From a virus, in the IMG/VR virus record IMGVR_UViG_3300007513_000007, positions 64,001-128,000 of that record: a stretch of 64,000 bases of DNA; one strand, 5' to 3'. The notes below the pieces were generated by a model that was not told the DNA's origin, searched no databases, and saw only the letters and a list, made by a program, of their open reading frames with translations. Below, one piece after another: positions 1 through 38,943 of this stretch (position 1 is the first letter of the stretch; each line of letters opens with the position of its first letter). The position numbers and the translations under genes are program-made.

Positions 1-742
1 TAGTTGCAGGCACGGAACCCACACTCCCCATCAATGGCCTTGCGGCTCTTGCCCGAAGCATCGAACAGGGCACGCAGTTCCTTCTTCAAGGTCACGATGG
101 AGGTGTTTACTCGTCCAGCCTGCTTGTCCAAAGTCTTTCCGATGTTGAGGCTCTTCGGGAACCCGCTTCCATACACCCAGGCTTCGAGTTTGATGTCCGT
201 GAATCCGACTTTCTCCAGTGCTGCGGCCAGCCTGTGGAAAGTCCGCGTCCCACTGAACGCTTTGATGACCCCACCTGATTCAAGTACCCGGTAGGCTTCC
301 TGCAACCATTGGAGGTGCCATGCTTCCATAGCTTCCAGGTGGTTCCCCATACCTCCCCCGGTCTGGTCATCTGGAAGACCCTCGTTCTCCGCGTTTCGGC
401 GCTTACCCATTGGTTTCCAATGGTCGTGGGGTTGGGGGCAGTGGCATTTCTTTGCACCGCGCAACCGGCCCCCGCACTCCGCACAAGTCGGATTGGTGGT
501 TCCGTGCTTGGAGGTGCTGGAGAAGCTGGGCCACTTGATATGCCGTTCACCGATTCCAGGACTGGTGAAGGTGCCGCCATGCTCGTAGGACTTACCGCTC
601 CCGATCTTGTCCCATTCTTTTCCCATGAACTCAAGGCCATTCAGCCGTAGGGAGGGTCACAAATGACGCTCCCTACGCTGCCCTCCTGGAGTTCGGCCAT
701 GCGGTTTACGCACTCGCCATGTTTCAGGACAATCTCACTCAT
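1..742 (-). CDS. N6/N4 DNA methyltransferase, catalytic (DPPY) half; frame broken after DPPYG; runs off window edge
   Basis: ATG at 742 overlaps the SET stop: MSEIVLKHGEC...VICDPPYG then TGA (643-641). A second frame from 638 reads GLEFMGKEWD...EAYRVLESGG...FSGTRTFHRLAAALEKVGF...WVYGSGFPKSLNIGKTLDK with no stop to position 1. Confidence 0.85.
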
Positions 743-1580
743 CCTCTTCCTCCCTTTGCTGCATCTCCTCTTGGAGTTGCATCCACTTCTGTGCAGACAG
801 AAGCAGTTCCTCGTCCGGTAGCGTGGACGGGTTCGCTGGGGCCTCCCCCATCGCCACGCATCCTGCCTCATGTTCGTCCATGATGGTTACCAGCTTGGCT
901 ATGGAGGAGGCATCTCGGAGAGGTCTCTCCAGCGGCTCTTCTTTCCGAGGCTCGAACCAAAGCTGGTCGCCATAGTTCATGAGAAACTCGTCACCTTTGT
1001 GGATGTCCCTCCAAGCAGTGAAATCCAGGAACCTGCGCTGTGTTTTGGGGCAAACGTAGGCGAGCGCAATCGTGTTCCAGTTCTCCTCGGAATGGTTGTA
1101 GAGCATCCCGTACCCCAGTGCGAGGCACTTTACCGGGTCCCTTCTCCAAGGAATGACCATATGCGCCATCAAGGTGAGCTTCGCCATAGACTGGGGGGAG
1201 TCCCTTTGATCTAATGGGCCGGGTGCATACGGTTCCGTGACCACCGACAGGATGGCCTTGTCGGACGTGTAGTTGGTCATGTCTACCGTGTTGTGGGCGA
1301 GTCCGTGCCGCACACTCCCCGCGTTAGTGCAGATGACAAAAACGGGACACCTCTCCACCAATGTCCCTGCCGGTATGTCTTCTCGGGCGTAGATCCCTAT
1401 CCCGGCAGTGCCCTGCCTCATCTCAATCAGGGGGCCGGGTGCTGGCGCTATGTCCGTATGCCCCCACAACGTGCCGCACTGCTTACACTTCCGATAGTTC
1501 TTCGAGCGCCATTGAAAACCGCATGATTGACAAGTAAAGGTGAGGTGTCGAAGGGTTTTCTCGCCCATCACTCCCCCCAC
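735..1580 (-). CDS. SET-domain protein (putative lysine methyltransferase) with N-terminal CxxC..CxxC zinc ribbon
   Basis: GIGIYAREDIPAG, LGYGMLYNHS, AWRDIHKGDEFLMNYG. Confidence 0.85.
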   Translation of the reverse strand: MGGVMGEKTLRHLTFTCQSCGFQWRSKNYRKCKQCGTLWGHTDIAPAPGPLIEMRQGTAGIGIYAREDIPAGTLVERCPVFVICTNAGSVRHGLAHNTVDMTNYTSDKAILSVVTEPYAPGPLDQRDSPQSMAKLTLMAHMVIPWRRDPVKCLALGYGMLYNHSEENWNTIALAYVCPKTQRRFLDFTAWRDIHKGDEFLMNYGDQLWFEPRKEEPLERPLRDASSIAKLVTIMDEHEAGCVAMGEAPANPSTLPDEELLLSAQKWMQLQEEMQQREEEDE

Positions 1581-3007
1581 CCGAAGAAATCATCAAGGCT
1601 CTGTTCTTCCTGCTCTACCTTGGGGGCTTCCGACTCGATTGACGCACGATTCCAGCCCTGGTTCTCTGCGTTCCAGTGCCTTACACGGGCATCCGCAATC
1701 TGGATGTACTCTTCTTCCCGCTCAATGCCGATCCCAGAGTGTCCGGTTTTTGTACAGGCGATCATGGTCGTGCCGGAACCAAGAAAAGGGTCCACCACAA
1801 GCCCCTCTTTAGGCACTGTCTCAAGGAGTCTTCGCATCACCTCTACGGGCTTCACCGTCGGATGGGAGTTGTGCCGCTTCTGAACCCCTCGGTTTCGAGG
1901 ATTGTCACCACCCGGATTGCCTTCCTTTCGTCCGTCGTCCCTTTGTGCTGCCTCGATAGAAGCGCACCCTGCTTCTCGTTCGGCTCTCGAAGGCTTGGCG
2001 ACGTAGTGTAGGCGGTCTTCTGGGCTGTCTGCGACAAGGATGCAGTCCCGTACTTCAAAGCCTGCATCCTCCCCGGCACAAGCACCCTTGAACCCCGTAT
2101 CTTCGGATGCCAGAAGCAAGTGCCCTCCTGGCTTCATGACCCGGAGGGCCTCCCCGATCCAATCCCCAACAGCATTGTCTGATTCAGTGAGGATGGCATG
2201 TACCGTGCCGTCTTCGTGCTTGGCCCAGTCGAAATCCGAGGGGTTGGCAATAACAAGGGTGTTGCAGTCATCCAGGTGGTCAGGGGAGACCATCGTCTGA
2301 AGGTATTCTCGGAGTTCTTTGGGGAGCATGAAGTTCTTTACCCGTCCTGAAGGTTGTTTGACCCTCTCCTGGGGGAACTGGTGAAAGAATCGGGCAGCAC
2401 CCCCGGCATCTGCAAACCCCCGTTCAGTTGTGTCCGTGACGGAGTTGGGGTTCCACACCATCGATCCACCCCCTGTCGGATAGATGGGGTTGCCGGTGGG
2501 CTTGCGTACCACCCCTTTAGTGACTCCGCTCTGTTCATCGAGGTCGGCCACAAGGCACCCATCGACACACTCCCAAGCGGGGATCGTTTCGTTTCCGTCC
2601 GGGTCTGTTGCAGGGGACTCCCACGCATCTGGTCGGACATCTTTGCTGCGGCGTGCGCCCCAACCGTGGCGGGGATCTGGCTTTCCCTTTGGGCCGTTGG
2701 GATACCCTTGATGACCCTTCACCTTACGCACGCCGAGGTGCTCGCATCCAGGTTGGTGCTGAAGCACCAAGTTCCCCGGCCAACGGCCAAGAACCTGTCC
2801 GTCCTTCTGGTGGGTGGCGGTTGACCCATAAGCCCCGAAGATACCGTTCCCTTTGGCTGCTTCAGCAGGCTTCGAGTGGGTACTGACCACTTCGCCGTGG
2901 GCTGCTACACGGCATCGGTCGATATTGAGGCCGCCTGTTCCATGATTCAGGGCACATGCAGCAACCGTAGACCCCAGAGGTTTACGGAGAAGGTGGACGG
3001 TTTTCAT
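1568..3007 (-). CDS. Permuted DNA methyltransferase-like protein (SAM-binding motif I present, DPPY absent)
   Basis: RKPL..TVA..HGTGGLNID, GRWPGN, GGAARFF, YVAKPSRAER, HPTVKPVEVMRRL, VVDPFLGSGTT. Confidence 0.85.
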   Translation of the reverse strand: MKTVHLLRKPLGSTVAACALNHGTGGLNIDRCRVAAHGEVVSTHSKPAEAAKGNGIFGAYGSTATHQKDGQVLGRWPGNLVLQHQPGCEHLGVRKVKGHQGYPNGPKGKPDPRHGWGARRSKDVRPDAWESPATDPDGNETIPAWECVDGCLVADLDEQSGVTKGVVRKPTGNPIYPTGGGSMVWNPNSVTDTTERGFADAGGAARFFHQFPQERVKQPSGRVKNFMLPKELREYLQTMVSPDHLDDCNTLVIANPSDFDWAKHEDGTVHAILTESDNAVGDWIGEALRVMKPGGHLLLASEDTGFKGACAGEDAGFEVRDCILVADSPEDRLHYVAKPSRAEREAGCASIEAAQRDDGRKEGNPGGDNPRNRGVQKRHNSHPTVKPVEVMRRLLETVPKEGLVVDPFLGSGTTMIACTKTGHSGIGIEREEEYIQIADARVRHWNAENQGWNRASIESEAPKVEQEEQSLDDFFGWGE

Positions 3008-3581
3008 TCACCCTCTCCGGGGAAAACCCAGGCGTTGCCGACCAGTGTTCTCGACACCGGGCTGCGTACATCCCCTTGGAACCAACCAGGACGCGCTCCG
3101 CTGATTCCACAAGGCGTTGTGTTCGAGTCGCATGGCTTCCGCACACACAACACACGGCTGTCACCTTGGTTGCTGAATCAGCCAGGGCCAGGATGGGCGA
3201 AACCGTCGCGAAAGGTTTGCCTTCGTAGTCTAAATCAAGCCCTGCGGCGATGACCCGGTGGCCCTCGCTCGCCAGTTGGTCGAGCGCGTACCCGATGTCA
3301 GGGGAGCGAGGAGTCTTTTCTATGAACTGGACCTCGTCAATCCCAATGACATCGAAGCAGTGCGCCGCCTCCACGATTTCTTCAACGGTGGTGACCGAGG
3401 TGGCAGGGAAGGTAGCGCCGAGATGCGTGGACAGGTTGCTCTCTGAATAACGGTTATCGAGCTTCGGCTTGAAGGCTCCTACGCGCAAGCCTGCGATCTG
3501 CGCCCGTGTCAATCGTCGGACCAACTCCTCCGTCTTTCCAGAGTACATGCACCCAACCACCACCTCCAAACTTCCAGCCAT
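2982..3581 (-). CDS. tdk: Thymidine kinase
   Basis: GCMYSGKTEEL, IGIDEVQF, AAGLDLDY, CCVCG...TQR...YAARCREH. Confidence 0.95.
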   Translation of the reverse strand: MAGSLEVVVGCMYSGKTEELVRRLTRAQIAGLRVGAFKPKLDNRYSESNLSTHLGATFPATSVTTVEEIVEAAHCFDVIGIDEVQFIEKTPRSPDIGYALDQLASEGHRVIAAGLDLDYEGKPFATVSPILALADSATKVTAVCCVCGSHATRTQRLVESAERVLVGSKGMYAARCREHWSATPGFSPERVNENRPPSP

Positions 3582-3589
3582 CTCGTCCC

Positions 3590-4033
3590 CTACGTCAAAG
3601 CAAACTCATTTCCGGTGACCACAACAACATGTCGCCGCTCCCTCCAAGCCATAGCGACACGCTGAAAAACCGCCCCGTCCAGAGGTGGCTCGTAACATTC
3701 CGGCGTCTTGCCACAAGGACGACACCTTACCGAGTCCCAGCCAATACAGGACTCACGAATCGCACAAGCACCATCGTCGGAGGTCACCCGCTGTGCTGAT
3801 TTGAGGGGAGGTCGTCCCAACTCCCTTGCCAGGGGCGTGGCGTACCCGTGCAGAGCGTGGGACAAGGATTCTCCCGTCACCGTCGTCACCCCTTGCGCCC
3901 AAGAGGTTCCCTGAAGGGGTTGGAGGTCTCCCCAAGGAGCGGCATCCGTAGGGAAAGCCACCAACAGCAGGATGCTTCCCTGTTCCTGGTCGGTCAGGTC
4001 GATTTCCCGCAGACGAAGCCTACTCGTCATCAA
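3590..4033 (-). CDS. Hypothetical protein (Cys-containing)
   Basis: Co-oriented, tightly packed ORF. Confidence 0.65.
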   Translation of the reverse strand: MMTSRLRLREIDLTDQEQGSILLLVAFPTDAAPWGDLQPLQGTSWAQGVTTVTGESLSHALHGYATPLARELGRPPLKSAQRVTSDDGACAIRESCIGWDSVRCRPCGKTPECYEPPLDGAVFQRVAMAWRERRHVVVVTGNEFALT

Positions 4034-4349
4034 AGACTACACTGAACGTCTGGGCAAACGTGGAAGTCGCACTCCAAGCCGATTCTTCAGATTCGGTAGC
4101 CGTAAGACTGTAGGTGTATTCCCCGCCCAACGTGTGAGGCACGAATGCTTCACCGCCCAGCCAGATGTTCGGGTCATCGCCCTCTGGTTCGGAAACGTCC
4201 TCGGGGTCTGGCATCTCGAACTCTTGAGGAGGCATTTCGATGGCCACCTTGGTTTCAGTCCCGGTGACGTAGACGACGGGCTTACCCGTTTCGGTTTCGA
4301 GGGTGATGACAGTCCCTTTTGGGAGGGTAAAGGCGGTGGGGATGTCCAT
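4020..4349 (-). CDS. Hypothetical acidic protein
   Basis: Co-oriented ORF with AGGA RBS; overlaps next start. Confidence 0.6.
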   Translation of the reverse strand: MDIPTAFTLPKGTVITLETETGKPVVYVTGTETKVAIEMPPQEFEMPDPEDVSEPEGDDPNIWLGGEAFVPHTLGGEYTYSLTATESEESAWSATSTFAQTFSVVFDDE

Positions 4350-4382
4350 GCGGCGAAGTCCTTCCGTGATGTCTACTTCACC

Positions 4383-5150
4383 CTACCCGCCCTCTTTGGT
4401 TTCCTTCCCCCCATGCACCACGCAACGAACTTTTCCTTTGAGGCGGCGACAATCATTCCCAATACCTCCGATATACAGGCCGGAATCTGGGTGGGCGCAC
4501 AGACCGGGCCATCCCATCCCGGATTCCTTTTCCCGAGTGCGCCGATGAGCCAAGGGGATGGGATGGGTAAGACCTCGAACATGCCACGCATACGTCCCAC
4601 TGTTAGCACAGCACTTTCCGTCGGCTTGCGCTGCGGCGTTGGCCTCCTCGGACTTCCAGTTCAGGTGGCCACAAGGAAGGTGGTGGGGAGGCTTCCAGTC
4701 CGCAGGTGGCTCGCTGGGAGGGGGAACGTCATCGTCCTCAACTACCCGTTGGAAGGGTCCCCTGGGTTCCTCGATGGCCTCGTCATCGAACTCCGGTTCG
4801 GGTTCCGGGTCAAGAGCCACCAGGACCGGGTAGGAGAGTGATTCGGAATCCACCTCCAACACCTTGTTGGTTACCCCAGCCTCCAACACCTCGGCCCACC
4901 GTTTCGCAGAGAGCCTCTTGAATCCGTGAGCCTTTGCGGCCACAGGTTTCCAGGCGTCAACGCTCTTGCGTCGGCCCGTGTGGGCACGGAGAGCGTCGGC
5001 TATTGCTTGGGCGGCGTCCAGAGGCGTGGCCTTGGCCTTCTCCTCAAAGATGCTGCCGAAAGCATCCATCCCGCTGTTGTCAGCACTTTCGCGCACTGCT
5101 CCAGCCAGACCGCCTACCCAGTCCTCGATTATGTCCTTGGCTTTGGGCAT
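4383..5150 (-). CDS. Hypothetical protein, C-terminal Cys/His-rich region
   Basis: Likely start MPKAKDIIED (TGATG overlap with upstream ORF). Confidence 0.65.
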   Translation of the reverse strand: MPKAKDIIEDWVGGLAGAVRESADNSGMDAFGSIFEEKAKATPLDAAQAIADALRAHTGRRKSVDAWKPVAAKAHGFKRLSAKRWAEVLEAGVTNKVLEVDSESLSYPVLVALDPEPEPEFDDEAIEEPRGPFQRVVEDDDVPPPSEPPADWKPPHHLPCGHLNWKSEEANAAAQADGKCCANSGTYAWHVRGLTHPIPLAHRRTREKESGMGWPGLCAHPDSGLYIGGIGNDCRRLKGKVRCVVHGGKETKEGG

Positions 5151-5326
5151 CAGAACTTTCCAATGGCGGCACGCTTGCCGTCGCGAAGGGCGTCTTCCTT
5201 TACGTTCTGGAGCAGTCGCCAAAGGGCTTCTTGCTCGCGTTCGGTCAGCTTGTCCAGCATCGGAAGCAGGACGTGACGTTCACACCGGGTGCGGTGGAAC
5301 AGGGCTGTGAGGTGGCGCTTGATCAT
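5150..5326 (-). CDS. Small hypothetical protein (58 aa, below ORF-track cutoff)
   Basis: MIKRHLTALFHR...AAIGKF; ATGA and TGATG overlaps with both neighbours. Confidence 0.6.
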   Translation of the reverse strand: MIKRHLTALFHRTRCERHVLLPMLDKLTEREQEALWRLLQNVKEDALRDGKRAAIGKF

Positions 5327-6732
5327 CCCACCCCCAGGTCTTCGATGGGAACGGCGGTGAGGGTCCGCAAGCCATCCTCGCCTCGGGTTTGACCGATGTA
5401 GAGGTCGCCCCAGCCGTAGGTGTGGCGCTGTTCAGCAGAGGGGAGGTTGATGTTGAAGCCACACCCCTTCTTGCGAATCTGCTGCTCCTCTTTCGCGTAG
5501 CTGCCCATTGTCTGGTGTGCCTTCCACGCTGCGAGGCTGTTCCTCTTGTGGTGCATGTCCAGAATCTGCACAACCCGATCTCGGGGAAATGCCCGCAACA
5601 GGTCGAGTGCGTAGTGCTTGATGGCTTCCTCGCCAGTGGTGAGGTCAACGCTGTGATACTGCATGAGTTGCGGTTGCGTGCGAACCGCAATCTCGATCTG
5701 GTCACCTGCTTGACGGGGGCCAACGCAAAGGACGAACGAGCAGAAGGGAGTACCTCCGGGGGTCTTCTTTCCCGCCTTGTGTTCGCCGCTATGGTAGGCG
5801 TAGACGTTGAGCAGGGTGCATTCTAAACCCGTACCGAAGAGGTACACGTTCATGATTTGTCGGGTGGTTTCGGCTCGGGTCATCGCCTTGCCGATGGCTG
5901 TCAGGTTCCCGTTTCGGTTGACGGGCTGAAAGACGCTCTTCACACCTCTACGGTGCGGGAAGACACGGCGTAGCCGCTTCTCGGCCAGAGCGATCATCTT
6001 CCGGGGGTCGAACTCGCCGTGCGTGAAGCAGGCGGCACTGACCTCCATACCGCACTTGCGGTACAGGTCTCGGGCCTTCTTGCGGGTGGCACGGGGCATG
6101 TTGGGGACCAAGAGTTCCCGATCCCGGATAGCGCACTCCCGACCCTTGAGCAGAGTCACCCCAAAGATGGCTGGATACGCAGAGGCTCCCAGCATGGCCT
6201 CCCCCAAGGTCACCATGTTCGGGATGTCAGTGGTCGGAGCCAAGCCGCCAATGCCGTTACAGAAGTCGAGGTGGCCGCTGTTGTAGAGCAGGCGGCTGCT
6301 TCCCTGGACCTGGAGAATGGTGGAGTGTTGGCGCTTCCGTACCTTGATGGCAGGCGCGTTGTTCGGGACCACCAAGCCCCCGGAGTTCAAGGGTTGGTTG
6401 CCCAAGAGCTTCCAATGCCGCTGGTTGCCCATGCCCCGGTTGATTTGGGCTTGTGCCACAACCTGGGCACAGTCGCCGTGGATGATGTGTGCGTTCTGGT
6501 ACAGGCTTTGGGTGTAGGTCGCTTCGCTCTCGGCGCAGTCGATACCCGTGACTCGGGTCAGGTCAAACCCCAACCCCTCAAGGGTAGCGAAGTCTCCCCC
6601 GTGCCCAGCAAGCACCAAGCTCCCCAAGTAGGACGAGCCAATGGCGTTCATCCAGTTGGACATGGAGATCCAGAGCCTCGCTCTGGCAATACGCTTACCG
6701 GGGGAATCTCCCTTGTAGGTGCCTTCTTCCAT
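5323..6732 (-). CDS. Hypothetical protein, possible divergent class I SAM-dependent methyltransferase fold at N-terminus
   Basis: LVLAGHGGD / VTGIDC / IIHGDC / GHLDFC spacing resembles motifs I-IV. Confidence 0.55.
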   Translation of the reverse strand: MEEGTYKGDSPGKRIARARLWISMSNWMNAIGSSYLGSLVLAGHGGDFATLEGLGFDLTRVTGIDCAESEATYTQSLYQNAHIIHGDCAQVVAQAQINRGMGNQRHWKLLGNQPLNSGGLVVPNNAPAIKVRKRQHSTILQVQGSSRLLYNSGHLDFCNGIGGLAPTTDIPNMVTLGEAMLGASAYPAIFGVTLLKGRECAIRDRELLVPNMPRATRKKARDLYRKCGMEVSAACFTHGEFDPRKMIALAEKRLRRVFPHRRGVKSVFQPVNRNGNLTAIGKAMTRAETTRQIMNVYLFGTGLECTLLNVYAYHSGEHKAGKKTPGGTPFCSFVLCVGPRQAGDQIEIAVRTQPQLMQYHSVDLTTGEEAIKHYALDLLRAFPRDRVVQILDMHHKRNSLAAWKAHQTMGSYAKEEQQIRKKGCGFNINLPSAEQRHTYGWGDLYIGQTRGEDGLRTLTAVPIEDLGVG

Positions 6733-6911
6733 TAGTGACCTTCCTGACAGAGCCGACGGGATGCTTGACGGAGCCGAGTTTCGATGGCCTTGCGGGCACG
6801 ACGAACCTTCCGCTTACGGGCACCGCCATGACCTCGGTGAAAGGTTCCCCCATCACCGTCCACGTCCTTGCGAGCCTTGCCGAAAAGTTTTGCTTTGCCG
6901 CGCTGTGCCAT
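6732..6911 (-). CDS. Small basic protein (59 aa)
   Basis: MAQRGKAKLF...RKRKVRRARKAIETRLRQASRRLCQEGH; GGAGG RBS; TAATG overlap. Confidence 0.65.
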   Translation of the reverse strand: MAQRGKAKLFGKARKDVDGDGGTFHRGHGGARKRKVRRARKAIETRLRQASRRLCQEGH

Positions 6912-6925
6912 AAAGCCTCCGAACC

Positions 6926-6957
6926 CTATACGGGTTCAACTTGAAGGGGGAACCCCC
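6926..6957 (-). promoter_or_regulatory. Class A promoter-like motif
   Basis: GGGGGTTCC-N16-CG-TATAG. Confidence 0.7.
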
Positions 6958-6958
6958 C

Positions 6959-7354: not shown

Positions 7355-7395
7355 TGGGGCTAACTCCTGGCTGCAAGCAGCGCGGGTTGGAAGTC

Positions 7396-9140: not shown

Positions 9141-10748
9141 ATGAAGATTGGCATTATCTCAAAGAAGCCGCACGCAAAGAACCATGCCCAAGCTCTAAAG
9201 CGCGAGGGTCATGACGTAGTTTTGTTGGACGGTGACCCCAAAAGAATACCTTCCTCCATCGACTTGGTGATCTGCCGCACCGCTTCGTGTAGCCACGGTG
9301 CGAGTAACGTAGCTCTGGAGTGGCAACGCTCTGGAGGAGGTTTCCTGGTGATGGAGAACGGACTGTCCGGGGCTTTGAGAGCCATTCGGCAATACATCGA
9401 ACCCAAGAAGAGCAAGAAGAAGAAGGAAGAGGCCAAGGTCGCTGCTCCTGCTCCCACCCCTACTCCTGTGGAACCGGAGTCCGCACCTATGAAGAAGATC
9501 ACAGGCAGCGTTTTGGATGAGGCCGTCACTATGGTTGGCGAGGGCACTTCTCTCACCAAGGTTGCCAAGCATTTCAATGTTGCTCGCAGCACCCTCACCC
9601 GTGCTCTGATCGAAGCAGGAGGATGGCCCCAAACAAGCCAGCCTCTTTCGCCTGAACCGCAACCTCCCGCAGAAGCAGACGTACTGGAAGCAGGACCTCC
9701 CCCTTCAGAGTCCGAAGTCGAGGAGCTTATCGAGACATGGGCTGTGCTGGTTGTAGAAACCCGCATAAACGACAACTTCGAGCAACGCCTGGAAGTGATG
9801 AAGGGCTTGATGGAGGTCGAGGTCGAGGACTGGCGGCTTCGTAGTGCTTTGATGGCCGCAGCAGGCGAGGATGTCCCGCTGCTCCACGAACCGGAAGAAG
9901 ACCTCGAAACCGAGACGGTCACGCACACCGAACCTGAACCCGAACCTGAACCTGTTGAGGTCGAGGACCCCTCCACACCGGACTACGGTGACGACGAAGG
10001 TGCCTTCGTGTTGCCTCCGATCCCCGTACCTGAACCCCACTTCTTGAAGGCGTGTCCTGTAGACCGCATCCTCAACGATCTTCCTATTGCCCGCAGACTG
10101 GCCGCGTTGGTGTCTAATGAGGATAAGGAGAAGTTCCGAAAGGCGCTCCTGTCCCATGACCGGAACCCCAAGAACGCTGGGGCGTGGATACCTCGGGATT
10201 TGAAGAAGGCCGATGCACCTTTTGCTTCTGCCAAGGGCAAGCCCCTGGTCTTCGCGTTGCTGGTGTGGCTCTTGCTCGATCCCGAAGATGAACCTTCGGG
10301 CAGGGCCTTCCTCCACGCCTACAAGGAGTTGACCAAGAAGGGAACCGACAGTCGTTTCCCCAAGGCTGCTGCTTGGGCCTTGGGCCGCACTCTGGGGGAA
10401 GCCCTTCGTGGTAGGGGTGGTGGTAAGAAGCCGTCCTCTGATAGTCTTTCGGGAACTGAAAAGACCCACTTCCTCCAAGCCCTCGCAAAGAAGAAGGACA
10501 TGCTCGCTGAAAAGGATGCCACCATCCAGAGCCTCCAACAGGAACTCGAACAGGTTCGCGAAGAAGAGGACCGTCTGCGACATGAACTGGAGCTTGCTCT
10601 CCGTTCGCGTTCACAGCAGCCCCCTGCAATCGGAGCCAGCCCTGCTGCCCCTGTTCCGGCCCCTTCGACGGGCTTGACCTTGGACCTCACCGTGGATGAC
10701 TTGGTTCGCGCAGGCTTCCAGGTCCACGTCACGAAGCCCTGTGGGTAA
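9141..10748 (+). CDS. Multidomain protein: DUF2325-like N-terminus, HTH, acidic linkers, coiled coil
   Basis: DLVICRTASCSHG (DUF2325-like); SLTKVAKHFNVARSTLTRAL (HTH). Confidence 0.7.
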   Translation: MKIGIISKKPHAKNHAQALKREGHDVVLLDGDPKRIPSSIDLVICRTASCSHGASNVALEWQRSGGGFLVMENGLSGALRAIRQYIEPKKSKKKKEEAKVAAPAPTPTPVEPESAPMKKITGSVLDEAVTMVGEGTSLTKVAKHFNVARSTLTRALIEAGGWPQTSQPLSPEPQPPAEADVLEAGPPPSESEVEELIETWAVLVVETRINDNFEQRLEVMKGLMEVEVEDWRLRSALMAAAGEDVPLLHEPEEDLETETVTHTEPEPEPEPVEVEDPSTPDYGDDEGAFVLPPIPVPEPHFLKACPVDRILNDLPIARRLAALVSNEDKEKFRKALLSHDRNPKNAGAWIPRDLKKADAPFASAKGKPLVFALLVWLLLDPEDEPSGRAFLHAYKELTKKGTDSRFPKAAAWALGRTLGEALRGRGGGKKPSSDSLSGTEKTHFLQALAKKKDMLAEKDATIQSLQQELEQVREEEDRLRHELELALRSRSQQPPAIGASPAAPVPAPSTGLTLDLTVDDLVRAGFQVHVTKPCG

Positions 10749-11465: not shown

Positions 11466-12110
11466 ATGAAGCATGACGCCGCCAGGGTTGCCCTTCGCCA
11501 CAGCCTGAAGGCCACGGCCATCGGCCCCTATGAGGATTCCATCATCGACGGCCTCAAGGTCACGCAGGTGGAGACAGACAACCGCCGCTCAAATGCCTCG
11601 ATTCGGGGGAACCGCCTCCTGGTGAAGTGGGGGCAGGACAGCCGGATGTTCAACAAGGCTACCCAGCTTGCGAAGTGGGTCCGTTGGGCTAACCGCAAGC
11701 TGGGCCAGAAGAAGGAACGAGTCCAGCAGAAGAAGGAGTGGACGCGCACGAAAGTGGACGGCTACTCCGTCTACGACCTGGAAGGCAAGGAACAGGTCGC
11801 CGCCATGATGGCGAAGATCCAACGTGACGTAAAACCCTTGCTTCGGGAGTTTGGCCTCCGTTTCCAGACCATCAAAGAGTCTGTGGCCGAGGGGTCGCTG
11901 GGATTCAACCGTGGTGCGGGCCGTATCATCGCCCTCAATGTTCGTCAGAAGCGGAACCCCATGAAGCTCCGCAAGTACAGCGCGATCATGCGGACCATGA
12001 TCCATGAGCTTGCCCACATTCGGCATATGAACCACGGGCCGAACTTCAAGATGTTCGAGCAAGAGCTTCTGGGCGTTGCCCGTAAGACGGGCGTGTACTC
12101 ACCGGGCTGA
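11466..12110 (+). CDS. WLM/SprT/YgjP-like zinc metalloprotease
   Basis: TMIHELAHIRHMNHGPNF (HExxH..H); GFNRGAG..IALNVR. Confidence 0.85.
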   Translation: MKHDAARVALRHSLKATAIGPYEDSIIDGLKVTQVETDNRRSNASIRGNRLLVKWGQDSRMFNKATQLAKWVRWANRKLGQKKERVQQKKEWTRTKVDGYSVYDLEGKEQVAAMMAKIQRDVKPLLREFGLRFQTIKESVAEGSLGFNRGAGRIIALNVRQKRNPMKLRKYSAIMRTMIHELAHIRHMNHGPNFKMFEQELLGVARKTGVYSPG

Positions 12111-31136: not shown

Positions 31137-31151
31137 GGGCACCGGAAGACG

Positions 31152-32168: not shown

Positions 32169-33232
32169 GCTTCCTCCTCGGGGAGCAGAAGTGCGCCCCA
32201 TCCGTACTGGCGGTCAGCGATGGCGTTGATAGCCCTGACTTCCAGAATGTAAGCCTTGTTCTTGTCGAGACGCAGGAGTTCCCCGTTCTCGCCACCAATC
32301 AAGTCCAGGGTGAGTGTTTCCGCTGCGGCGGTTGCGGGCGAAAAGGAATCACTCACCTCGTCACACCCGTACACCTCAACCGTCCATACGGCCTTGAGTG
32401 CTTTCTCCGCATCCTTTACATCGCCCTTGCCCACCTTGTAGCCCGCTTTCTTGAACTGTTGTGTCATCAGTTCCTCGACCACGGGCCGCAAAGACCTGCG
32501 CCCTTGGGTGGTAGCGATGGCGAGATACGCAGCCTTCTGGCGTTCTTCTTGGGTCAAGGCTGCAAGTGCGACAGGTGAAGGCTTTGCCACCTCTCTCAAG
32601 GTTGGAAGGGTTCCAGCCTCATACCCCTTCACACCAAGAGGAGGGGCTGGGAGGGCGTCCTTCGCGGTCTGGACAAGGGCCTGAACCTCTGGGTCGTCCT
32701 CCCCCCTGGACTCCAGCAAAGCCTTCACCGTTGTCTGCTGCCGGTCATAAAGCTGCTGGTACTCTTTCCGGGCGCTGCGAAGCTCTTGGGCAACCTCGTC
32801 GGATGCTTGTTGGAGCATGACACCCAAGGCGATGGGATCAGGCGAGATTGTGTGTACCGGGACTGCTGGGGTGCCTCCTTCGGGGAGAGGGCCTACACGG
32901 TACTCTGGGGCATCCCCGTCGATGCTGCACCGCTCCTTGATAGCGGCTTCCATGAGGGGGTTCACAATGGTACTGCCATTGTCATGCTCAAGGGTGGTAG
33001 GGGCAGCAGGACCTCCAACTTGGACAAGGGACCCCAGGGACTCTGCCTTGTCGGGGTTCTTTGCCAGCAGACCTGCAATCAGCACGGCTGCTTCCATCGG
33101 GGTGTGTTCGCCCCTCTTGGCAGCTTCCATAATCTCCGCTGCTCCGGGCAGCCCCATCACCAACTCGTTGGCTTGGTTCAGCAGCTTCATCGAGTCACTC
33201 ATCCTCTCCTCCCTTCTGATGAGTACCCCCAC
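32165..33232 (-). CDS. Hypothetical protein
   Basis: Long ORF, GGAGG RBS near MSDSMKLL. Confidence 0.7.
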   Translation of the reverse strand: MGVLIRREERMSDSMKLLNQANELVMGLPGAAEIMEAAKRGEHTPMEAAVLIAGLLAKNPDKAESLGSLVQVGGPAAPTTLEHDNGSTIVNPLMEAAIKERCSIDGDAPEYRVGPLPEGGTPAVPVHTISPDPIALGVMLQQASDEVAQELRSARKEYQQLYDRQQTTVKALLESRGEDDPEVQALVQTAKDALPAPPLGVKGYEAGTLPTLREVAKPSPVALAALTQEERQKAAYLAIATTQGRRSLRPVVEELMTQQFKKAGYKVGKGDVKDAEKALKAVWTVEVYGCDEVSDSFSPATAAAETLTLDLIGGENGELLRLDKNKAYILEVRAINAIADRQYGWGALLLPEEEA

Positions 33233-34298
33233 CCATCGTTATTCGACCCCCCGGCTCGATTTTTCGCTCGCGGGGATTCCTCACCACAGGGGTAGGGGCA
33301 GCCCAATCATCAACGGACGACGGTGCTGTAGGGCCTCCCACCATAAGACCCTCGGAAGGGATGGTGGTGTTTCTGGCCCTGCCCATAAATCCTGCGGGGG
33401 CTTCCCGTGTAGGAGGCTTCGGAGCCTTTTCCCGAATGGGGGCAGCCGGTTGTTCTTGAGGGGCGTTGTTCAAGCGTTGTTGAATGTCGATGACATGCTT
33501 GCAAAGTGTTCGCTTGAACACAAAAGCGGGACAAGAACACGACCACGACCCGTCATCAAAGCAACGCACATCATAGATGTCCCCAGAGTCACCTCGAACC
33601 CTCCAAAAACCAGTTTCAAGCTGGGTTTCATCCTGAGTCGGTTCGTTATCGCTATCTGATTCGGGCTGCTCGTGCTGCTCGTGTTCTGATTCAGGCTCAT
33701 GCTGCTCTGGTTCCGGTTCTGGAGGAGGCTGGAGCTTCAGACGCAGACCTTCGGCGGCTCGCAGCACAGTCTTGCGATCCTCTTTCGTACCGCCCATTTC
33801 GAGAGGGGACAGCAAGAAGTCGATTTCTTCAATCGTCGTCGCATCCCGCAGTCTCCGTACCGCCTGCTTCGCATTGAGTTCCTTTAGCGGATGGTTCTTG
33901 GGGGGTTCAGGTTCAGGTTCAGGCTCTGGTTCAGGCTTGATTGGAACCGCCATCCCCACCATTTCGGCGGCGGCCTTGCCGATTTCCTCCTCCGTAGGGA
34001 TGCTCCAATCCCCTTTCTGGGCACTCACTTCAAGGGCAAGCGCACTCTGAACCATGTCTTGAAAGTCAACTTCACGGATCGCATCGAACCTTGAATCGGA
34101 TTCCGATGCAAACCTCGGATTTTCCAGGAGCACGTCCTTCTGGGTCAACATCCGCTTGGTCCAGAGGGTTTGGGACTGGACAGAGTTCACACACCCAGGA
34201 TTGAGGCAGCTACCACAGAACAGCTTCTTGAACGCAGCGGGGGATTCTTTCCGATGATCTCCGCTGTAACACTCGTCCCATAGATCACGGGAGTTCAT
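33195..34298 (-). CDS. SWIM zinc-finger protein with N-terminal Cys cluster
   Basis: WSCSCPAFVFKRTLCKHV; CGSCLNPGC. Confidence 0.8.
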   Translation of the reverse strand: MNSRDLWDECYSGDHRKESPAAFKKLFCGSCLNPGCVNSVQSQTLWTKRMLTQKDVLLENPRFASESDSRFDAIREVDFQDMVQSALALEVSAQKGDWSIPTEEEIGKAAAEMVGMAVPIKPEPEPEPEPEPPKNHPLKELNAKQAVRRLRDATTIEEIDFLLSPLEMGGTKEDRKTVLRAAEGLRLKLQPPPEPEPEQHEPESEHEQHEQPESDSDNEPTQDETQLETGFWRVRGDSGDIYDVRCFDDGSWSCSCPAFVFKRTLCKHVIDIQQRLNNAPQEQPAAPIREKAPKPPTREAPAGFMGRARNTTIPSEGLMVGGPTAPSSVDDWAAPTPVVRNPRERKIEPGGRITMGGGTHQKGGEDE

Positions 34299-34606
34299 CG
34301 GCGCTTCCCGAAACGACCGCGACTCAACATGTTGGTTGGAGGCTGTACGGTATCTACAGCCCTCTCCAGCTTCGGGCCGTGGCCTTCAGGTAGCGCGAAC
34401 TTACAACTGGGGCACTTGTCCTGACTCATCTTCATCAGGCCACAGACGCGCTTCCATGTCTTGACGTGTTCGTAGCGATGTTCAGAAACATGAGGTCGTA
34501 CCGCCTCCGGGTCCGGGCCGTACCCAAACACTTCTTTGGGAGGCCAGATTTTTCCGTTCTGGCAAAACGTGCCGTCCTCCAGCGTTCCCATCTTGTCACG
34601 AGGCAT
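34295..34606 (-). CDS. Small Cys-containing protein
   Basis: Likely start MPRDKMG; CGLM..DKCPSC. Confidence 0.6.
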   Translation of the reverse strand: MPRDKMGTLEDGTFCQNGKIWPPKEVFGYGPDPEAVRPHVSEHRYEHVKTWKRVCGLMKMSQDKCPSCKFALPEGHGPKLERAVDTVQPPTNMLSRGRFGKRR

Positions 34607-34925
34607 CTTTTCCCTCCAAAGCCATCCTGTACTCTCCCCGCTTCTCCCGAAGCGAGCCAAGACGACCCTGCAAGGTAGAGTACAGCGCGTCATCACCGTA
34701 CCCAAGAAGCTCCAACACCCCCTCCAATGTAGCGATCTCGGCATCCGTTCTGGACAGCTTCAGTGCCACCTTGGCTCTGCTTCTGATTTCCAAGGGGATG
34801 ACACCCAACCGCTCGGCTTCGACAGACCATGCCAGAATCTCTGCCATAGCCTCTGAAAGAACGCTCAAATCCGCTTCAAGTTGGCGAACCTGGGATTCCA
34901 GCTTGGCGATGTTGTCAGACATCAC
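34596..34925 (-). CDS. Coiled-coil hypothetical protein
   Basis: Coupled to polymerase stop. Confidence 0.65.
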   Translation of the reverse strand: MMSDNIAKLESQVRQLEADLSVLSEAMAEILAWSVEAERLGVIPLEIRSRAKVALKLSRTDAEIATLEGVLELLGYGDDALYSTLQGRLGSLREKRGEYRMALEGKDAS

Positions 34926-37666
34926 AAACCCTCGTGTCGAGCAACGATCTGGAACTCGATAAAAGACACCCGCACCTCTTCGTTTAGAAGATCAATACCG
35001 CCATCAGTCTCGATTCGGAGAGTGTCGGTCCCCCTCCCCGCACAGGAATCAATGACACGAGCAAGCCTTTCAGCGGTCGTGAGTGTCAGCTTATGGGAGG
35101 GCACACGGTAGACGTGGACCTCCCCGCCCCCGTTCTCGGAAATATCTTGGGGGAGTGTCTTCCCTTTTCCGTTCACCACTTCGGGTTTTGGATCACTTTG
35201 CACAGCCGTTGGTTGGGGGGCAGGTGCCTCGCCATCAACCGGAGTGCCTCCTTTTTCCAGGTAGGTGGCGTACTTGGTAGGGAAAACCGACACCAACCGA
35301 GGTGTCCAGTTGCCTCCTCCCTGGTTGTTCTCCATTTCAGTGAGGTTGTTAGGAACAGTCCAGTTGCCGCCAAACTCAATGTCTACCTTGAGTGGGATCA
35401 GCCACGGGAGGTTGCAAGAGGTCTTGTTGACCATGACGTCTTCGATGAGGATCACCGCCTCTTCCGCGACAGCCTCCTCGATCTCAAAGACCAACTCATC
35501 ATGGATGGTGACGGTCATGAGGACCTTCTTCAGCCACCCCCGCTTCTTGATTTCCCGGTAAAGGAGCGCCATCGCCAACTTCATGATGTCGGCACTGGTC
35601 CCCTGCACGGGGCCGTTCACACTGTTCCGCTCTGCTTTGGCACGGAAGCCGCCCATCTCATGGTCGATGTCAGGGAGGGGGTACTTCCTTCCAAATGCAG
35701 TGGTGACGTACTTCTGCTTCTTGGCGGTCTTGTGCTGGAGCCTCCACCACTGCCGAAGGCCGGTGTAGGTCTTGTCGAACTGCCTCTTGATTCGGTGGCC
35801 CTCTTCCTTGTCCACTCCGACTGCACGCTGGGCCGCCATCCCACCGCCGCCGTAGCACATGGCGAAGTTGAGGGCCTTTGCGTTCTGCCGCTTCTGCTTG
35901 AAACCGCTCCCAGAGCGGCTGTCATCACCGTAGATGGAGAGGGCCGTCAGTGTGTGGAGGTCACCAATCTTATCGGAACCGCAGTCAGGACAGAAGGGAG
36001 GCGGCCTCTGGCCTTTCTCAAACTTTCGGTCGCAGGAGGAGCAGCGGAAGAACTCCGTGATCCATTTCGGCTCGCCAGAGATGTTCGTGACAATCCGAAG
36101 CTCCACACCCGAGTAGTCGATGGCGAAAAGGATGCGGCCCGGTCGAGCAGTCAAGCATTCTCGCATCCGAAGCAGGCATGAAGGCTTGGACTTGTCATAG
36201 GTGGCTGGGATGCTGTGAAGGTTCCACCGCACCTGCCCGTTGAAACTCTTCTTGTTTGGGGCGGGGGTGCTGAATCGCCCCGTATCCACTTTGTGGGCGT
36301 TGAATCCAACCCAGATGCACCCGTCTGGAGCGCGTTGGGTGCTGGTGTCGAGCCACACAGGGAACAGGTTGGAGGACAATCCCTTGGCTACTTCCCGGAA
36401 CCTCTTGACCTTGGCCATGAAAGGAAACTGGTCACCTGCGTTGTCAATCACCCTTTCAAGCTCGTCCTTGGAGGTCTTCACCTGCCCGCTCTTTTCCGTA
36501 GGGCGCAAGCCTTGAACCTTCAACTCCCGCATCATCAAGCCGAGGTTGGCCGGGATTGTCACGTCATAGATTGCTGGGAAAGTGACTGATTCCTGGAGTT
36601 TAGGATTGGTGAGCGAAGGTACTGACTTGGAGATGGGAGGAGGGGTTTCAAAAGGTACTTGGGTAGCCCGCTCTCGCACCTCCATGTAGTTGGGTCGGAT
36701 AGTGGTGGGGTCGAAAGCGGTTTCCGAACCGTCCCCTTCCAACATGACCCGAAACCAGCCTGGGCGAATATCGCGCCCGAGAAGCTCCGACCCATCCCGA
36801 TACACTTCCTTCAAGCACTCCATCCATTCGGCTTGACCGATTCGGATAAGCTCCTCGATCTTGTCTCGGTCAACATGGATACGGCACCGCTCCATCCACC
36901 GGGTAGCGGTCACACACCCCTTCTCCAAGGCATAGATGGTGGACTGGCTGCGCTGGTGGTCGTCTTTGTTCACCACCGTTGGGTGCAGAATATGGAAGAG
37001 CCGCAGAGTGCAGATGGCATCGGCAGCGGCGTACCACACCGTCGGTTCCCATTCGGGGTCCAATGTAGAGAAGTCCAGGAACCCCTTGCGGCGCTTTTCA
37101 ACAGGGAAAAGCTCCTTCAACTCGATCATCTCCATGCCGAGTTCGTTTTTGGAGAGGGCCTTCAGCCCTTTGTTCCTCTCTCTGGTGTTCCGAAGGTAAG
37201 CGAGGATGAACGTGTCCTCCCACTTCTTCGGGTTGTCCCATTCCCCGATAGGTCCGTAGTCATCGTGCTGAAGGAACTCTTGGTCAAACTTGCCGTTGTG
37301 GAAGACCGCTACCGCATCTGATTCGACCAACCTCTTCACGGCCTCTGCAACCAACCGGGGAGGGACGTTGGCTTCAGTCTCCTTGTGTCTGACGGGGATG
37401 TAGTAGCCCGTGTCAGGGTTGGGAGAGATGCAGTACCCCACGATCTTATCGTTCGTGTAGGGGGAGCCGTCGTCACTGTAAAAGACCCGTGCATCCAGGC
37501 CAGTGGTTTCCAGGTCCAGGCCGTACACTCCTGCTTCGATGCACTCCTCTACGATCCGATCAAGGTCGGCAGTCGTGGCAAGAGACATAGTGACAGAATC
37601 CATCCACGGCTTCTTCTCCACCACGGGTTTTTCCATCTCTTGAAGCTGATCAAAGAAGTCCGACAC
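34922..37666 (-). CDS. polA: Family A DNA polymerase with 3'-5' exonuclease domain
   Basis: DLETTG, FHNGKFD, YAAADA; motif A IDYSGVELR; motif B RQNAKALNFAMCYG; motif C TIHDELVFE; GGAGG+GTG start. Confidence 0.96.
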   Translation of the reverse strand: MSDFFDQLQEMEKPVVEKKPWMDSVTMSLATTADLDRIVEECIEAGVYGLDLETTGLDARVFYSDDGSPYTNDKIVGYCISPNPDTGYYIPVRHKETEANVPPRLVAEAVKRLVESDAVAVFHNGKFDQEFLQHDDYGPIGEWDNPKKWEDTFILAYLRNTRERNKGLKALSKNELGMEMIELKELFPVEKRRKGFLDFSTLDPEWEPTVWYAAADAICTLRLFHILHPTVVNKDDHQRSQSTIYALEKGCVTATRWMERCRIHVDRDKIEELIRIGQAEWMECLKEVYRDGSELLGRDIRPGWFRVMLEGDGSETAFDPTTIRPNYMEVRERATQVPFETPPPISKSVPSLTNPKLQESVTFPAIYDVTIPANLGLMMRELKVQGLRPTEKSGQVKTSKDELERVIDNAGDQFPFMAKVKRFREVAKGLSSNLFPVWLDTSTQRAPDGCIWVGFNAHKVDTGRFSTPAPNKKSFNGQVRWNLHSIPATYDKSKPSCLLRMRECLTARPGRILFAIDYSGVELRIVTNISGEPKWITEFFRCSSCDRKFEKGQRPPPFCPDCGSDKIGDLHTLTALSIYGDDSRSGSGFKQKRQNAKALNFAMCYGGGGMAAQRAVGVDKEEGHRIKRQFDKTYTGLRQWWRLQHKTAKKQKYVTTAFGRKYPLPDIDHEMGGFRAKAERNSVNGPVQGTSADIMKLAMALLYREIKKRGWLKKVLMTVTIHDELVFEIEEAVAEEAVILIEDVMVNKTSCNLPWLIPLKVDIEFGGNWTVPNNLTEMENNQGGGNWTPRLVSVFPTKYATYLEKGGTPVDGEAPAPQPTAVQSDPKPEVVNGKGKTLPQDISENGGGEVHVYRVPSHKLTLTTAERLARVIDSCAGRGTDTLRIETDGGIDLLNEEVRVSFIEFQIVARHEGL

Positions 37667-37694
37667 TTTCCCTCCGCAGGATAGCAATACCCAT

Positions 37695-38288
37695 TCACTT
37701 GGCCTGTCCGACCCCCAGCACCTCTTTTGCAGACCGCAAAATCTTCAGGAACAAGACATCAGCTTGCCGGTCGTCTATTGACTCCTTCTGGTGCAGGTAA
37801 GCAACCTTGTCGAAGGCTTCCCAGAGAGCCGCTGATTTCTCCATTGTCAGCGACTTTTCTCGGGTCAACTCCAGGACAAACCGCTCCACTCTTCGCCGGG
37901 TCTCCTCAACATCAGGGCCGCTGTGGAGGGCACCCTCCACTTTCTTGGACAAGGATTCCCATGAATCCCCTGCTTCCCACGGGAGTGCAGGCAGGCCGTA
38001 CCGTGCTTCAAGCATCTTCAAGGCGTCACCGAATCCGACACCCTCTTTCTCTCGAACCAGGGTGATGGCGTCCCGTGTTTGCCCGCAGGCAAAGCAATAG
38101 AAGCTCGCTGAATCAGGGTAGACCCGTGCGGAAGGCTTGGTGTCGTGACCATCCCCGTGAAGATCACAAGAGAACTGCTGCTCCCTGTCCCCACCTTCGG
38201 GGAAAACCGCGTACCCGTAGTCAGCCAGCACTTGGACTATGGGGATTTCTTCTCTGATTCGGTCGGCTCTGCGCCTGCCCCTACTCAT
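37695..38288 (-). CDS. Stand-alone CHC2 (primase-type) zinc-finger protein, no TOPRIM
   Basis: FSCDLHGDGHDTKPSARVY...FYCFACG...DAITLVREKEGVGFGDALKML. Confidence 0.85.
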   Translation of the reverse strand: MSRGRRRADRIREEIPIVQVLADYGYAVFPEGGDREQQFSCDLHGDGHDTKPSARVYPDSASFYCFACGQTRDAITLVREKEGVGFGDALKMLEARYGLPALPWEAGDSWESLSKKVEGALHSGPDVEETRRRVERFVLELTREKSLTMEKSAALWEAFDKVAYLHQKESIDDRQADVLFLKILRSAKEVLGVGQAK

Positions 38289-38943
38289 CCTCCCCACCCA
38301 CCTGCTTGAAGTACCGGGAAGCCCCTCCCGTGTCGGGGGGCCTGTAAACATGCGCTCCACCATCGTCGTCAGAACGATAGCTGTACCCGCTTCTTTTCGG
38401 TTGGTGTGTGACTCCCCACGAAGGACACTCCCCTGATTGGGCGTCCAGGGCTTTTACCGGACAACCCGGCTCGCAGATCCAGTTGGCTACGGATTCGTTT
38501 CCCTCAATATCCCCGTAAGCGGCTCCTGCAACCTCAGTGCTACCGCGCCAACCCGCCGAATATATGTCTTTCCCCTTCCCTTCCAGACCGCATTCTTTCT
38601 TGCCGCCTGTAGCTCCCCGCTTGTCTCCTTTGACCTTGCGCGTGCCCTCACACCGACACCCTGGAAGGTGCTGGAGGATGAGGTTTCCAGGCCACCTTCC
38701 CGTAGGCTGCTCGTAGTCAGCGAAGCCTCGGCGCATCGCCTGGGAGTCGCCCTTACGTTGAGAGGTCCACAAGTCGTAGCCCCCACCGCGAGGCGCGGGG
38801 TTCTTGGCGTAGGCCCCGCCGTCGAGGCTGTCCTGGGTGGAGATCCTGGAGGCGTCGATGTTCAGGCCCCCACACCCATGCTTCAGGGTGTTGGAGGCGA
38901 CGGTCCCGGACAGGGGTTTACGCAGAACGTGGACAACCTTCAC
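38281..38943 (-). CDS. Free-standing methyltransferase insertion module (paralog of N-terminus of 1568-3007)
   Basis: MKVVHVLRKPLSGTVA..HGCGGLNID..GRWPGNLILQHLPGC..CEPGCPV..LDAQSG..GGASRYFKQ. Confidence 0.8.
   Translation of the reverse strand: MKVVHVLRKPLSGTVASNTLKHGCGGLNIDASRISTQDSLDGGAYAKNPAPRGGGYDLWTSQRKGDSQAMRRGFADYEQPTGRWPGNLILQHLPGCRCEGTRKVKGDKRGATGGKKECGLEGKGKDIYSAGWRGSTEVAGAAYGDIEGNESVANWICEPGCPVKALDAQSGECPSWGVTHQPKRSGYSYRSDDDGGAHVYRPPDTGGASRYFKQVGGEDE

Follow-up and report, generated by a model that had tools for sequence, protein, structure and literature searches.

A putative multi-subunit phage DNA amino-methyltransferase with a separately encoded, possibly swappable recognition module

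Introduction

How could a DNA methyltransferase work when its conserved motifs are divided among separate genes, and why would one of its modules stand alone among replication genes? Both questions are raised by the window, a stretch of 64,000 nt that comprises bases 64,001–128,000 of the 180,576-bp virus record IMGVR_UViG_3300007513_000007 (57.6% GC; CheckV completeness ~40%). Three of its open reading frames (ORFs), all on the minus strand, carry modules that we call seg1, seg2, mid and seg3: gene 1 (742 onward) carries seg1, gene 2 (1568..3007) combines seg2, a degenerate seg1 (mid) and seg3, and a gene of 220 aa (38281..38943) consists of seg2 alone. The positions of these ORFs and the composition of gene 2 (HAILTESD, HPTVKP, DPFLGSGTT) agree with an earlier description made from the sequence alone (hereafter the original prediction). 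We regard it as reasonably probable that the three genes encode a multi-subunit beta-class DNA amino-methyltransferase with a swappable target-recognition subunit.

Single-chain phage beta-class N6/N4 methylases (PF01555; PHROG 67 and 498), such as Carlyle gp58 and LittleE gp151 of mycobacteriophages, have the same motifs in the same order. We surveyed 80 IMG/VR and 80 metagenome loci, annotated with hidden Markov models (HMMs) for seg1, seg2, mid and seg3, and these contain 73 single-chain seg1-seg2-seg3 ORFs. The window differs from the single-chain enzymes in that the segments are separate genes, a DPPY-less seg1 paralogue precedes seg3, and seg2 also occurs free.

Catalytic and cofactor motifs lie on different chains

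Motif IV is DPPY in gene 1 (codons 656–647) and TESD in gene 2, and is lacking in free seg2. Motif I (FxGxG) with the motif X helix, the S-adenosylmethionine (AdoMet) site, is present in gene 2 only and in neither gene 1 nor free seg2, and no single ORF of the record has both motif IV and motif I. This complementary content (DPPY without FxGxG in gene 1, FLGSG with TESD in gene 2) argues for assembly in trans, so that comparison supports the earlier proposal that separate DPPY and AdoMet-binding chains complement each other; neither would be expected to act without its partner.

Gene 2 (479 aa, its ATG overlapping the end of a thymidine kinase gene by 26 nt) matches PF01555 with 72.7 bits, above the gathering cut-off of 26.7 bits; gene 1, with 23.9 bits, falls under it. 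The match covers only aa 282–438 of gene 2 and profile positions 34–219, and because it starts at position 34, it leaves out the part of the profile that contains DPPY. The seg2 of gene 2 (aa 1–214; 2366..3007) spans RKPLGSTVA to GGAARFF, with an N-terminal strand plus RKP, followed by GLNID, GRWPGN and HQPGC...CVDGC. Its seg3 (aa 341–479; 1568..1987) contains HPTVKP, motif I (DPFLGSGTT) and GIEREEEY, and has sequence matches to M.BceJIV, CcrM and M1.HpyAVI.

In mid (aa 215–340; 1988..2365), a paralogue of seg1, HAILTESD replaces motif IV. A (D/N/S)PP(Y/F) motif was found at this site in none of 9 homologues from the loci and in none of the 120 closest database homologues, in which the site is SVHGxxxE-like. 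By these alignments, mid is a pseudo-catalytic half that is DPPY-less yet conserved. We found 1,931 homologues of mid+seg3; about two-thirds of the top 120 are stand-alone proteins of 250–280 aa, and the rest are fused to one or two seg2, as in gene 2. That mid+seg3 is itself a complete small methylase was ruled out, motif IV being absent across the family. The C-terminus of mid+seg3 (1568–1600 in the window, minus strand) is a conserved acidic-aromatic tail, SLDDFFGWGE, with counterparts DFDDFFGLDE and SIFDIFD in homologues; to judge by its sequence, it may be a short peptide for docking to another protein.

An AlphaFold2 model of gene 2 (mean predicted local distance difference test, pLDDT, 78.7; predicted template modelling score 0.74) is consistent with this division. 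The modelled seg3 (334–462) superposes on the C-terminal half of RsrI, CcrM, M.BceJIV and M1.HpyAVI with a root-mean-square deviation (rmsd) of 1.5–2.3 Å over 74–91 residues, and the modelled mid (~210–333) has its own superposition on Rossmann methyltransferases such as TrmI and PrmA. None of the solved beta-class enzymes superposes on mid and seg3 at once, and the Foldseek alignments of 230–265 columns have an rmsd of ~20 Å. In the model, seg3 thus appears to be left open for a partner. The N-terminal strand of seg2 (residues 2–8) has a pLDDT of ~95 where it is fused in gene 2 and <50 in the model of the free protein, which fits a docking strand that needs a partner sheet; it is the sole docking-like part of seg2 in the models.

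Gene 1 is interrupted directly after DPPYG

Gene 1 carries seg1, as the original prediction said, and has a break that went unmentioned there. Part A (33 codons; 644..742) starts with MSEIV and ends with SVICDPPYG, which includes motif IV, its last codon being GGC (646–644). Directly 3′ of the DPPYG codons come a TGA and a frame change (...TAC GGC TGA AT GGC CTT GAG TTC ATG...), so that a 5-nt gap, TGA AT (639..643), lies between GGC codons 646–644 and 638–636. Part B (1..638) begins with LEFMGKEWD, continues through a Cys-rich insert to WVYGSGFPKS, and runs 348 nt past the window start; it has 331 codons in all and a C-terminal end ...ALKPSWEPVLVGTKPP. The original prediction had allowed that DNA beyond the window might make gene 1 a self-sufficient methylase. 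Read on in the whole record, gene 1 closes with ...GWGTALKPSWEPVLVGTKPP and a short tail, without FxGxG, and its stop falls just before the point at which seg2 starts in single-chain enzymes. Because it ends at the seg1/seg2 border without FxGxG, gene 1 is not self-sufficient even beyond the window.

If TGAAT is skipped, the product reads DPPYG-LEFMGKEWD, which is the junction found in an uninterrupted relative (L063). The same codon is broken in L002 (GGA TAA AT GGC; 9364–9380) and in L015 (GGT TAG plus 8 nt, then GGA; 11544–11565). Among 71 junction genes in the fetched loci, only these two and that of the window are interrupted; L063 and 67 others are intact. The three interrupted proteins are 40–45% identical and all remain open for hundreds of codons, and at such low identity this indicates that the break is old and tolerated and that the genes are under selection. 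Sequencing error and pseudogene formation were ruled out as explanations of the break, since three different stops occur at the same site and the downstream frames are open.

How the gap is read has three candidate answers, each drawn from the nucleotide sequence: the ribosome may hop the short distance from one Gly codon to the other; it may undergo a −1 frameshift, in which case the product would gain LNG; or translation may stop and start again at the Met of FMGK, at the cost of DPPY. A 13-bp hairpin is predicted at 646..677 (minus strand), with the PPYG codons as its 3′ arm and its end at the take-off codon; the prediction is weak, as it comes from RNAalifold on 3 sequences with one compensatory pair only. 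The arrangement resembles the translational bypass of T4 gene 60 (PMC5462505, PMC7026636), which has mobile relatives (bioRxiv 10.1101/2022.08.31.505936), in that a Gly take-off codon is followed immediately by a stop and a matching Gly codon precedes the resumed frame. T4 gene 60 has a gap of 50 nt, however, against 5 nt here and 11 nt in L015; the present genes have no known nascent-peptide signal, and a search of the ORFs flanking the gene 1 operon for a nuclease gene (HNH or other) found none.

The Cys-rich insert of gene 1, CAECGG...CHCPQP (window 250–460, minus strand; aa ~60–130), lies between FMGKEWD and the RVLxxGG strand. Relatives have it in only some of their seg1 copies, a sign that the catalytic halves have diversified too.

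seg2 is a conserved module with two hypervariable regions

Free seg2 belongs to a large family. It has 715 near-length homologues, mostly of 200–225 aa, with 97–100% query coverage, 40–66% identity and no Pfam domain; with E ≤ 0.001 as the limit, 6,379 cluster representatives were retrieved in an exhaustive search, and module HMMs found seg2 alone in 88 of 138 new top representatives. These numbers support the view, already part of the original prediction, that seg2 is an autonomous module, and they speak against a set of sporadic decaying fragments, which that prediction had named as a contrary outcome. In the window, free seg2 matches no Pfam family at E ≤ 0.01, Methylase_S included. It matches PHROG 3008 at positions 2–82 only, and a PDB sequence search with the protein and its profile returned chance matches only (E > 0.6). 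The 253 mycobacteriophage records that match (annotated as DNA methylase) do so over the first 90–110 residues of seg2 only. In the phage collection, no cultured phage has a full-length free seg2, and only one uncultured 485-kb phage record covers at least 80% of it. A megablast search of cultured phages with the first 8 kb of the window gave no match.

The borders of the modules are regular. Single-chain enzymes have the junction ...GWGTALKPAHEPIVVARKPLxGTVA...GLNID. The seg1-only ORFs of related loci keep DPPY and all stop just past the ...EPxxxxRKP strand, and seg2-only ORFs open with their own copy of that strand (M-x-V-I-H-V-L-R-K-P), a pattern that holds in 24/31 seg1-only and 75/92 seg2-only ORFs. 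As the junction strand is carried both by the end of seg1 and by the start of seg2, the fission overlaps at the domain border.

Variation within seg2 was measured on 124 free-standing homologues and is concentrated in two regions. Mean pairwise identity is 73% in the scaffold, 27% in V1 (aa 101–147; 38503..38643, minus strand) and 23% in V2 (aa 172–203; 38335..38430, minus strand), and at a 45% identity threshold the 124 proteins fall into 51 V1 types and 51 V2 types. No V1 type with more than one member is tied to a single V2 type, and in 37 sets the four possible pairings of two V1 and two V2 types all exist; occurrence in all four combinations indicates that the two regions recombine. The V2 type of the window is also found with five other V1 types.

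The scaffold includes a putative zinc site, from the H92 codon to the C161 codon (38461..38670, minus strand), with H92, C96, C157 and C161 as ligands. H92, C96 and C157 are invariant across the 124 proteins, and C161 is at least 90% conserved. Both copies in the window keep the HxPGC and CxxGC motifs, as noted earlier (HLPGC and CEPGC in free seg2, HQPGC and CVDGC in gene 2).

Furthermore, relatives carry seg2 in tandem inside single chains: two to four copies stand between seg1 and seg3, or before mid+seg3, with arrangements such as seg1-seg2x4-seg3 and seg2x3-mid-seg3 and examples of 992 and 899 aa. Copies within an array are 26–65% identical. The seg2 of gene 2 is 35.6% identical to the free seg2 of the window, 49% identical to a free-standing 216-aa protein (P0060), and 26–33% identical to the other 21 seg2 of a 23-sequence alignment (A1). 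Its closeness to P0060 shows that the same type occurs both fused and free. The original prediction took seg2 for an adaptor or oligomerisation domain; a conserved scaffold, two hypervariable recombining regions and tandem copies point instead to a target-recognition module, which is most likely what seg2 is.

Proposed assembly

The anatomy of the genes, their conservation, the variation in module copy number, the shuffling of the variable regions and the synteny are observed; we infer assembly in trans, zinc binding, DNA reading by seg2, the modified base and the decoding of gene 1 across its gap, and these would fit together as follows. Gene 1, decoded across its gap, would supply the catalytic half (motifs IV–VIII), and seg3 of gene 2 the AdoMet-binding half (motifs X, I and II); the two would complete a single Rossmann sheet in which DPPY lies opposite the AdoMet site. 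Motif IV being DPPY, the product is probably N6-methyladenine. A seg2 would dock by its N-terminal strand and RKP onto the catalytic or the pseudo-catalytic half, with V1 and V2, mounted on a frame held by zinc, as its DNA-reading parts. One seg2 would act in cis, fused to the cofactor subunit, and one in trans, as the free protein. The mid module may stabilise seg3, or may mimic the second protomer of beta-class dimers.

The record contains one seg1, two seg2 and one seg3. A PF01555 search of the record found nothing beyond the methylase genes described, and a search for Dam-type PF02086 found none. Two seg2 thus stand against one seg1 and one seg3, and relatives have tandem seg2 in their chains, a composition that a multispecific enzyme might have. 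With one fused and one free seg2, the phage probably methylates two kinds of site, or reads two half-sites. The split with free modules probably lets the phage swap in new target specificities. The likely use is a broad shield of phage DNA against host restriction, made early together with the replication genes.

Several points weigh against this reading. Unless gene 1 is decoded across its gap, its main product is without motif IV. Most free copies of seg2 have other modules close by, but here the distance to them is ~35 kb. The record is ~40% complete, and the rest of the genome may encode further modules or even an intact methylase. Hypervariability could also reflect an arms race at a protein interface instead of target recognition. 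The model of free seg2 is poor (pLDDT 60.9), being confident only in the ligand-bearing beta-hairpins (aa 89–105 and 149–170; pLDDT 76–90), and a comparison with 48,161 chains gave no match at Z ≥ 2, which with so poor a model is uninformative on fold novelty; DNA reading by seg2 can therefore only be inferred.

Module kits and gene neighbourhoods

The fetched loci hold 88 complete free seg2 ORFs in 39 non-duplicate loci, and 37 of these ORFs have at least 3 kb of flank on each side. Another methylase module lies within 3 kb of 34 of the 37, a count that includes several ORFs per locus and is to that extent non-independent, which further weakens the case made above. The neighbour was another free seg2 for 31 of the 34, a seg3-bearing gene for 26 and a seg1-bearing gene for 20. 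The survey of seg2 neighbourhoods that the original prediction called for thus places free seg2 beside methylase modules.

The kits have one mid+seg3, and the numbers of seg1 and seg2 vary (1–7 free seg2 and 1–6 seg1 per single mid+seg3). Small kits are seg1 / seg2 / mid+seg3 (L007) and seg2 / seg1 / seg2 / mid+seg3 (L003, L036). Larger kits have seven free seg2, two seg1 and one mid+seg3 (L001) or six seg1, six seg2 and one mid+seg3 (L006), and L093 has a run of seven seg2 genes. Recoded stops that would join neighbouring modules into one ORF were ruled out: adjacent modules are read in different frames and overlap, or stand apart, by 1 nt, and each of TGA, TAG and TAA terminates ordinary genes in these loci. 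A free seg2 of a complete 436-kb relative (G003; L081:7583-8251) lies ~135 kb from the methylase cluster with no module nearby, and an HTH_3 gene overlaps its 3′ end.

We put forward, as a tentative extension, that huge phages have a combinatorial methylase in which a shared AdoMet-binding subunit and one or more DPPY subunits are served by a library of free, zinc-scaffolded recognition subunits. If so, the recognition subunits, each with two recombining variable regions, would be encoded in arrays that reach seven or more genes, and a Type II-like enzyme with Type I subunit logic would obtain a new protective specificity by gain or shuffling of a 0.6-kb gene.

Alternative explanations

The varying composition of the kits bears on a second way of putting the same parts together. 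In it, a single holoenzyme would contain both seg2: an active unit (gene 1, free seg2 and the seg3 of gene 2) would be paired with a dead unit (the seg2 and mid of gene 2), mimicking beta-class homodimers, and the two seg2 would read two strands or half-sites of one target. Such a pseudo-dimer would account for the conservation of mid without DPPY. Beta-class enzymes act as dimers, the active/eroded heterodimers METTL3-METTL14 and MTA1-MTA9 being examples (PMC7544214), and the set of one seg1, two seg2 and one mid+seg3 recurs in the window, L072, L127, L003 and L036. The wide variation in module numbers speaks against it, however, and chains with three or four seg2 fit alternative specificities better than a fixed 2:1:1 complex. 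We consider the pseudo-dimer unlikely.

It is likewise improbable that no methylase is left, with gene 1 dead, gene 2 a catalytically dead protein that binds AdoMet and DNA, and free seg2 repurposed, for example as a sequence-specific DNA-binding regulator or as a decoy against host restriction or defence proteins. The interruption of gene 1 by a stop with a change of frame, the TESD that gene 2 has where motif IV is expected and the separation of free seg2 from the other parts would all be expected if the enzyme had been lost, and 3 of the 37 well-flanked free seg2 have no module nearby, one of them beside an HTH (helix-turn-helix) gene in the complete 436-kb relative. Against such a loss, three diverged phages all conserve the interrupted gene and keep it open, each with a different stop codon at the shared site, seg1-only genes elsewhere keep an intact DPPY, and free seg2 is nearly always beside seg1 and seg3 genes.

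Linkage to replication genes

The methylase genes and the replication block of the window are all on the minus strand. Most of the kit is beside the thymidine kinase gene, in an operon with the order thymidine kinase, gene 2 (3007..1568), SET-domain gene (1580..735) and gene 1 (742 onward). One seg2 is left in the replication block ~35 kb off, which reads SNF2 helicase, a gene for a 253-aa protein, dnaB, the seg2-only gene, the CHC2 gene and family A DNA polymerase (PolA). The coupling that had been described for the seg2-only gene is indeed tight: its GTG start is 1 nt past the TGA of the dnaB-like helicase gene directly upstream (38945..40537, minus strand; PF03796), and its TAG gives an 8-nt overlap with the likely start (ATG 38288) of the CHC2 zinc-finger (primase-type) gene directly downstream (37695..38288, minus strand; PF01807). 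We took the CHC2 start to be M26 of the longest ORF, as homologues align from residue 26–27.

A homologue of DnaB, CHC2 or PolA is within 3 kb of 14 of the 37 well-flanked free seg2 ORFs. In the clade of the window phage, the gene order is SNF2, 253-aa gene, dnaB, methylase modules, CHC2, PolA; it recurs in full in L006, L072, L082 (a complete 436-kb genome), L107, L127 and L154 and in part in L091, L093 and L116. The inventory of the window (one seg1, one seg2-mid-seg3 and one free seg2) is matched by L072 and L127. Because the whole kit is linked to the replication genes, the linkage points to a common insertion spot and gives no ground for a physical tether. By gene order, the dnaB–CHC2 interval is an insertion spot of the whole clade, and the kit is probably expressed early along with the replication genes.

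The 1-nt spacing from dnaB, the overlap with CHC2 and the 14 of 37 ORFs near replication genes are what would be expected if, as the original prediction had it, free seg2 were an adaptor that couples the methylase to DnaB or primase at the fork, but this is very improbable, as the dnaB–CHC2 interval of L006, L072, L082, L107, L127 and L154 holds the entire kit and not just seg2, the unrelated phages L001, L003, L007 and L036 keep seg2 with methylase modules and have no relative of the clade's replication genes detected nearby, and two hypervariable reshuffled regions are unexpected in an adaptor to conserved replisome proteins.

Known systems and significance

The single-chain form is already common and annotated, and split methylases, split phage enzymes capable of reassembly, and specificity subunits made as separate proteins all have precedents. 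M.EcoHK31I, a natural heterodimer, and laboratory-split methyltransferases (PMC2836561) show that a two-gene methylase can reassemble and work, and fragmented phage NrdA reassembles in trans (PMC3045599). M.EcoHK31I differs from the present genes in being a C5 enzyme with a small subunit that has motif IX only, without free recognition modules or arrays.

In Type I restriction-modification systems, specificity resides in a separate subunit, HsdS (EcoKI is M2S1; PMC3510504), with variation in its target-recognition domains (PMC5399793). Free seg2 is like HsdS in placing specificity on a separate polypeptide, in having two recombining variable regions on a conserved frame, and in the tight coupling of the genes. 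This is an analogy only: seg2 matches no Pfam family and has no sequence relation to HsdS, the Type I catalytic domain is unsplit, and no restriction subunit is present here.

The multispecific cytosine-C5 methyltransferases of Bacillus phages (SPR and phi3T type) are described in the account cited here as combining a single core with several recognition modules (Trautner 1996 and Walter 1992, via PMC7544214), and relatives of the window genes with 2–4 tandem seg2 per chain are similar. They differ in that the enzyme is an amino-methyltransferase (DPPY and FxGxG in beta order), the module sequence is unrelated, and the modules are also separate genes in arrays.

Heterodimers of an active and an eroded beta-class subunit are known in METTL3-METTL14 and in the ciliate MTA1c (MTA1, MTA9, p1 and p2) (PMC7544214, PMC9174199, PMC9852454). 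The likeness lies in an eroded motif IV partner under selection and in the need for separate nucleic-acid-binding subunits. In those complexes, however, the subunits are complete folds and the active one binds AdoMet, whereas here motif IV and motif I belong to separate proteins, and the AdoMet-binding half shares its chain with the eroded one. Our literature searches turned up no account of a beta-class amino-methyltransferase divided in this manner, nor of free recognition-module arrays.

If the proposed assembly is true, the DNA-reading part of a Type II-style amino-methyltransferase would be a naturally separate, exchangeable protein, and this would explain how huge phages with broad or shifting hosts match diverse restriction systems. 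V1 and V2 types on a conserved scaffold would amount to a specificity code that can be tested against methylated motifs, and the set would offer a ready-made split scaffold for engineering methylases with programmable targets. Annotation would be affected as well: free seg2 genes now have no Pfam domain and are labelled hypothetical, and the reading of such fragments would change. The gap after DPPYG adds a candidate short-range ribosome bypass within the same gene set.

Other features of the loci

The SET-domain gene (281 aa; 735..1580, minus strand; PF00856, E = 3e-08) has an N-terminal Cys4 ribbon and no methylase module. It is placed between gene 2 and gene 1 and overlaps both. No SET-domain homologue was found in any of the fetched loci, and in L002 none is present between the two genes. 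A second AdoMet-dependent enzyme thus seems to have entered the operon recently.

Intein-like inserts, which start with Cys and end with His-Asn followed by Thr or Ser, interrupt conserved motifs in relatives (L001:8406-10238, L072:5439-7994, L015:11571-13421 and L015:3563-6481). Their sites are HP|TVKP of mid+seg3 and WxYG|SGFPKS of seg1, with others in DnaB and PolA.

The 253-aa protein encoded between the SNF2 helicase and dnaB genes (window 40534–41295, minus strand) has an N-terminal CxxC...G and no Pfam or PHROG match. Its gene is kept in every relative of the window phage's clade, and the protein may be a helicase loader or accessory factor.

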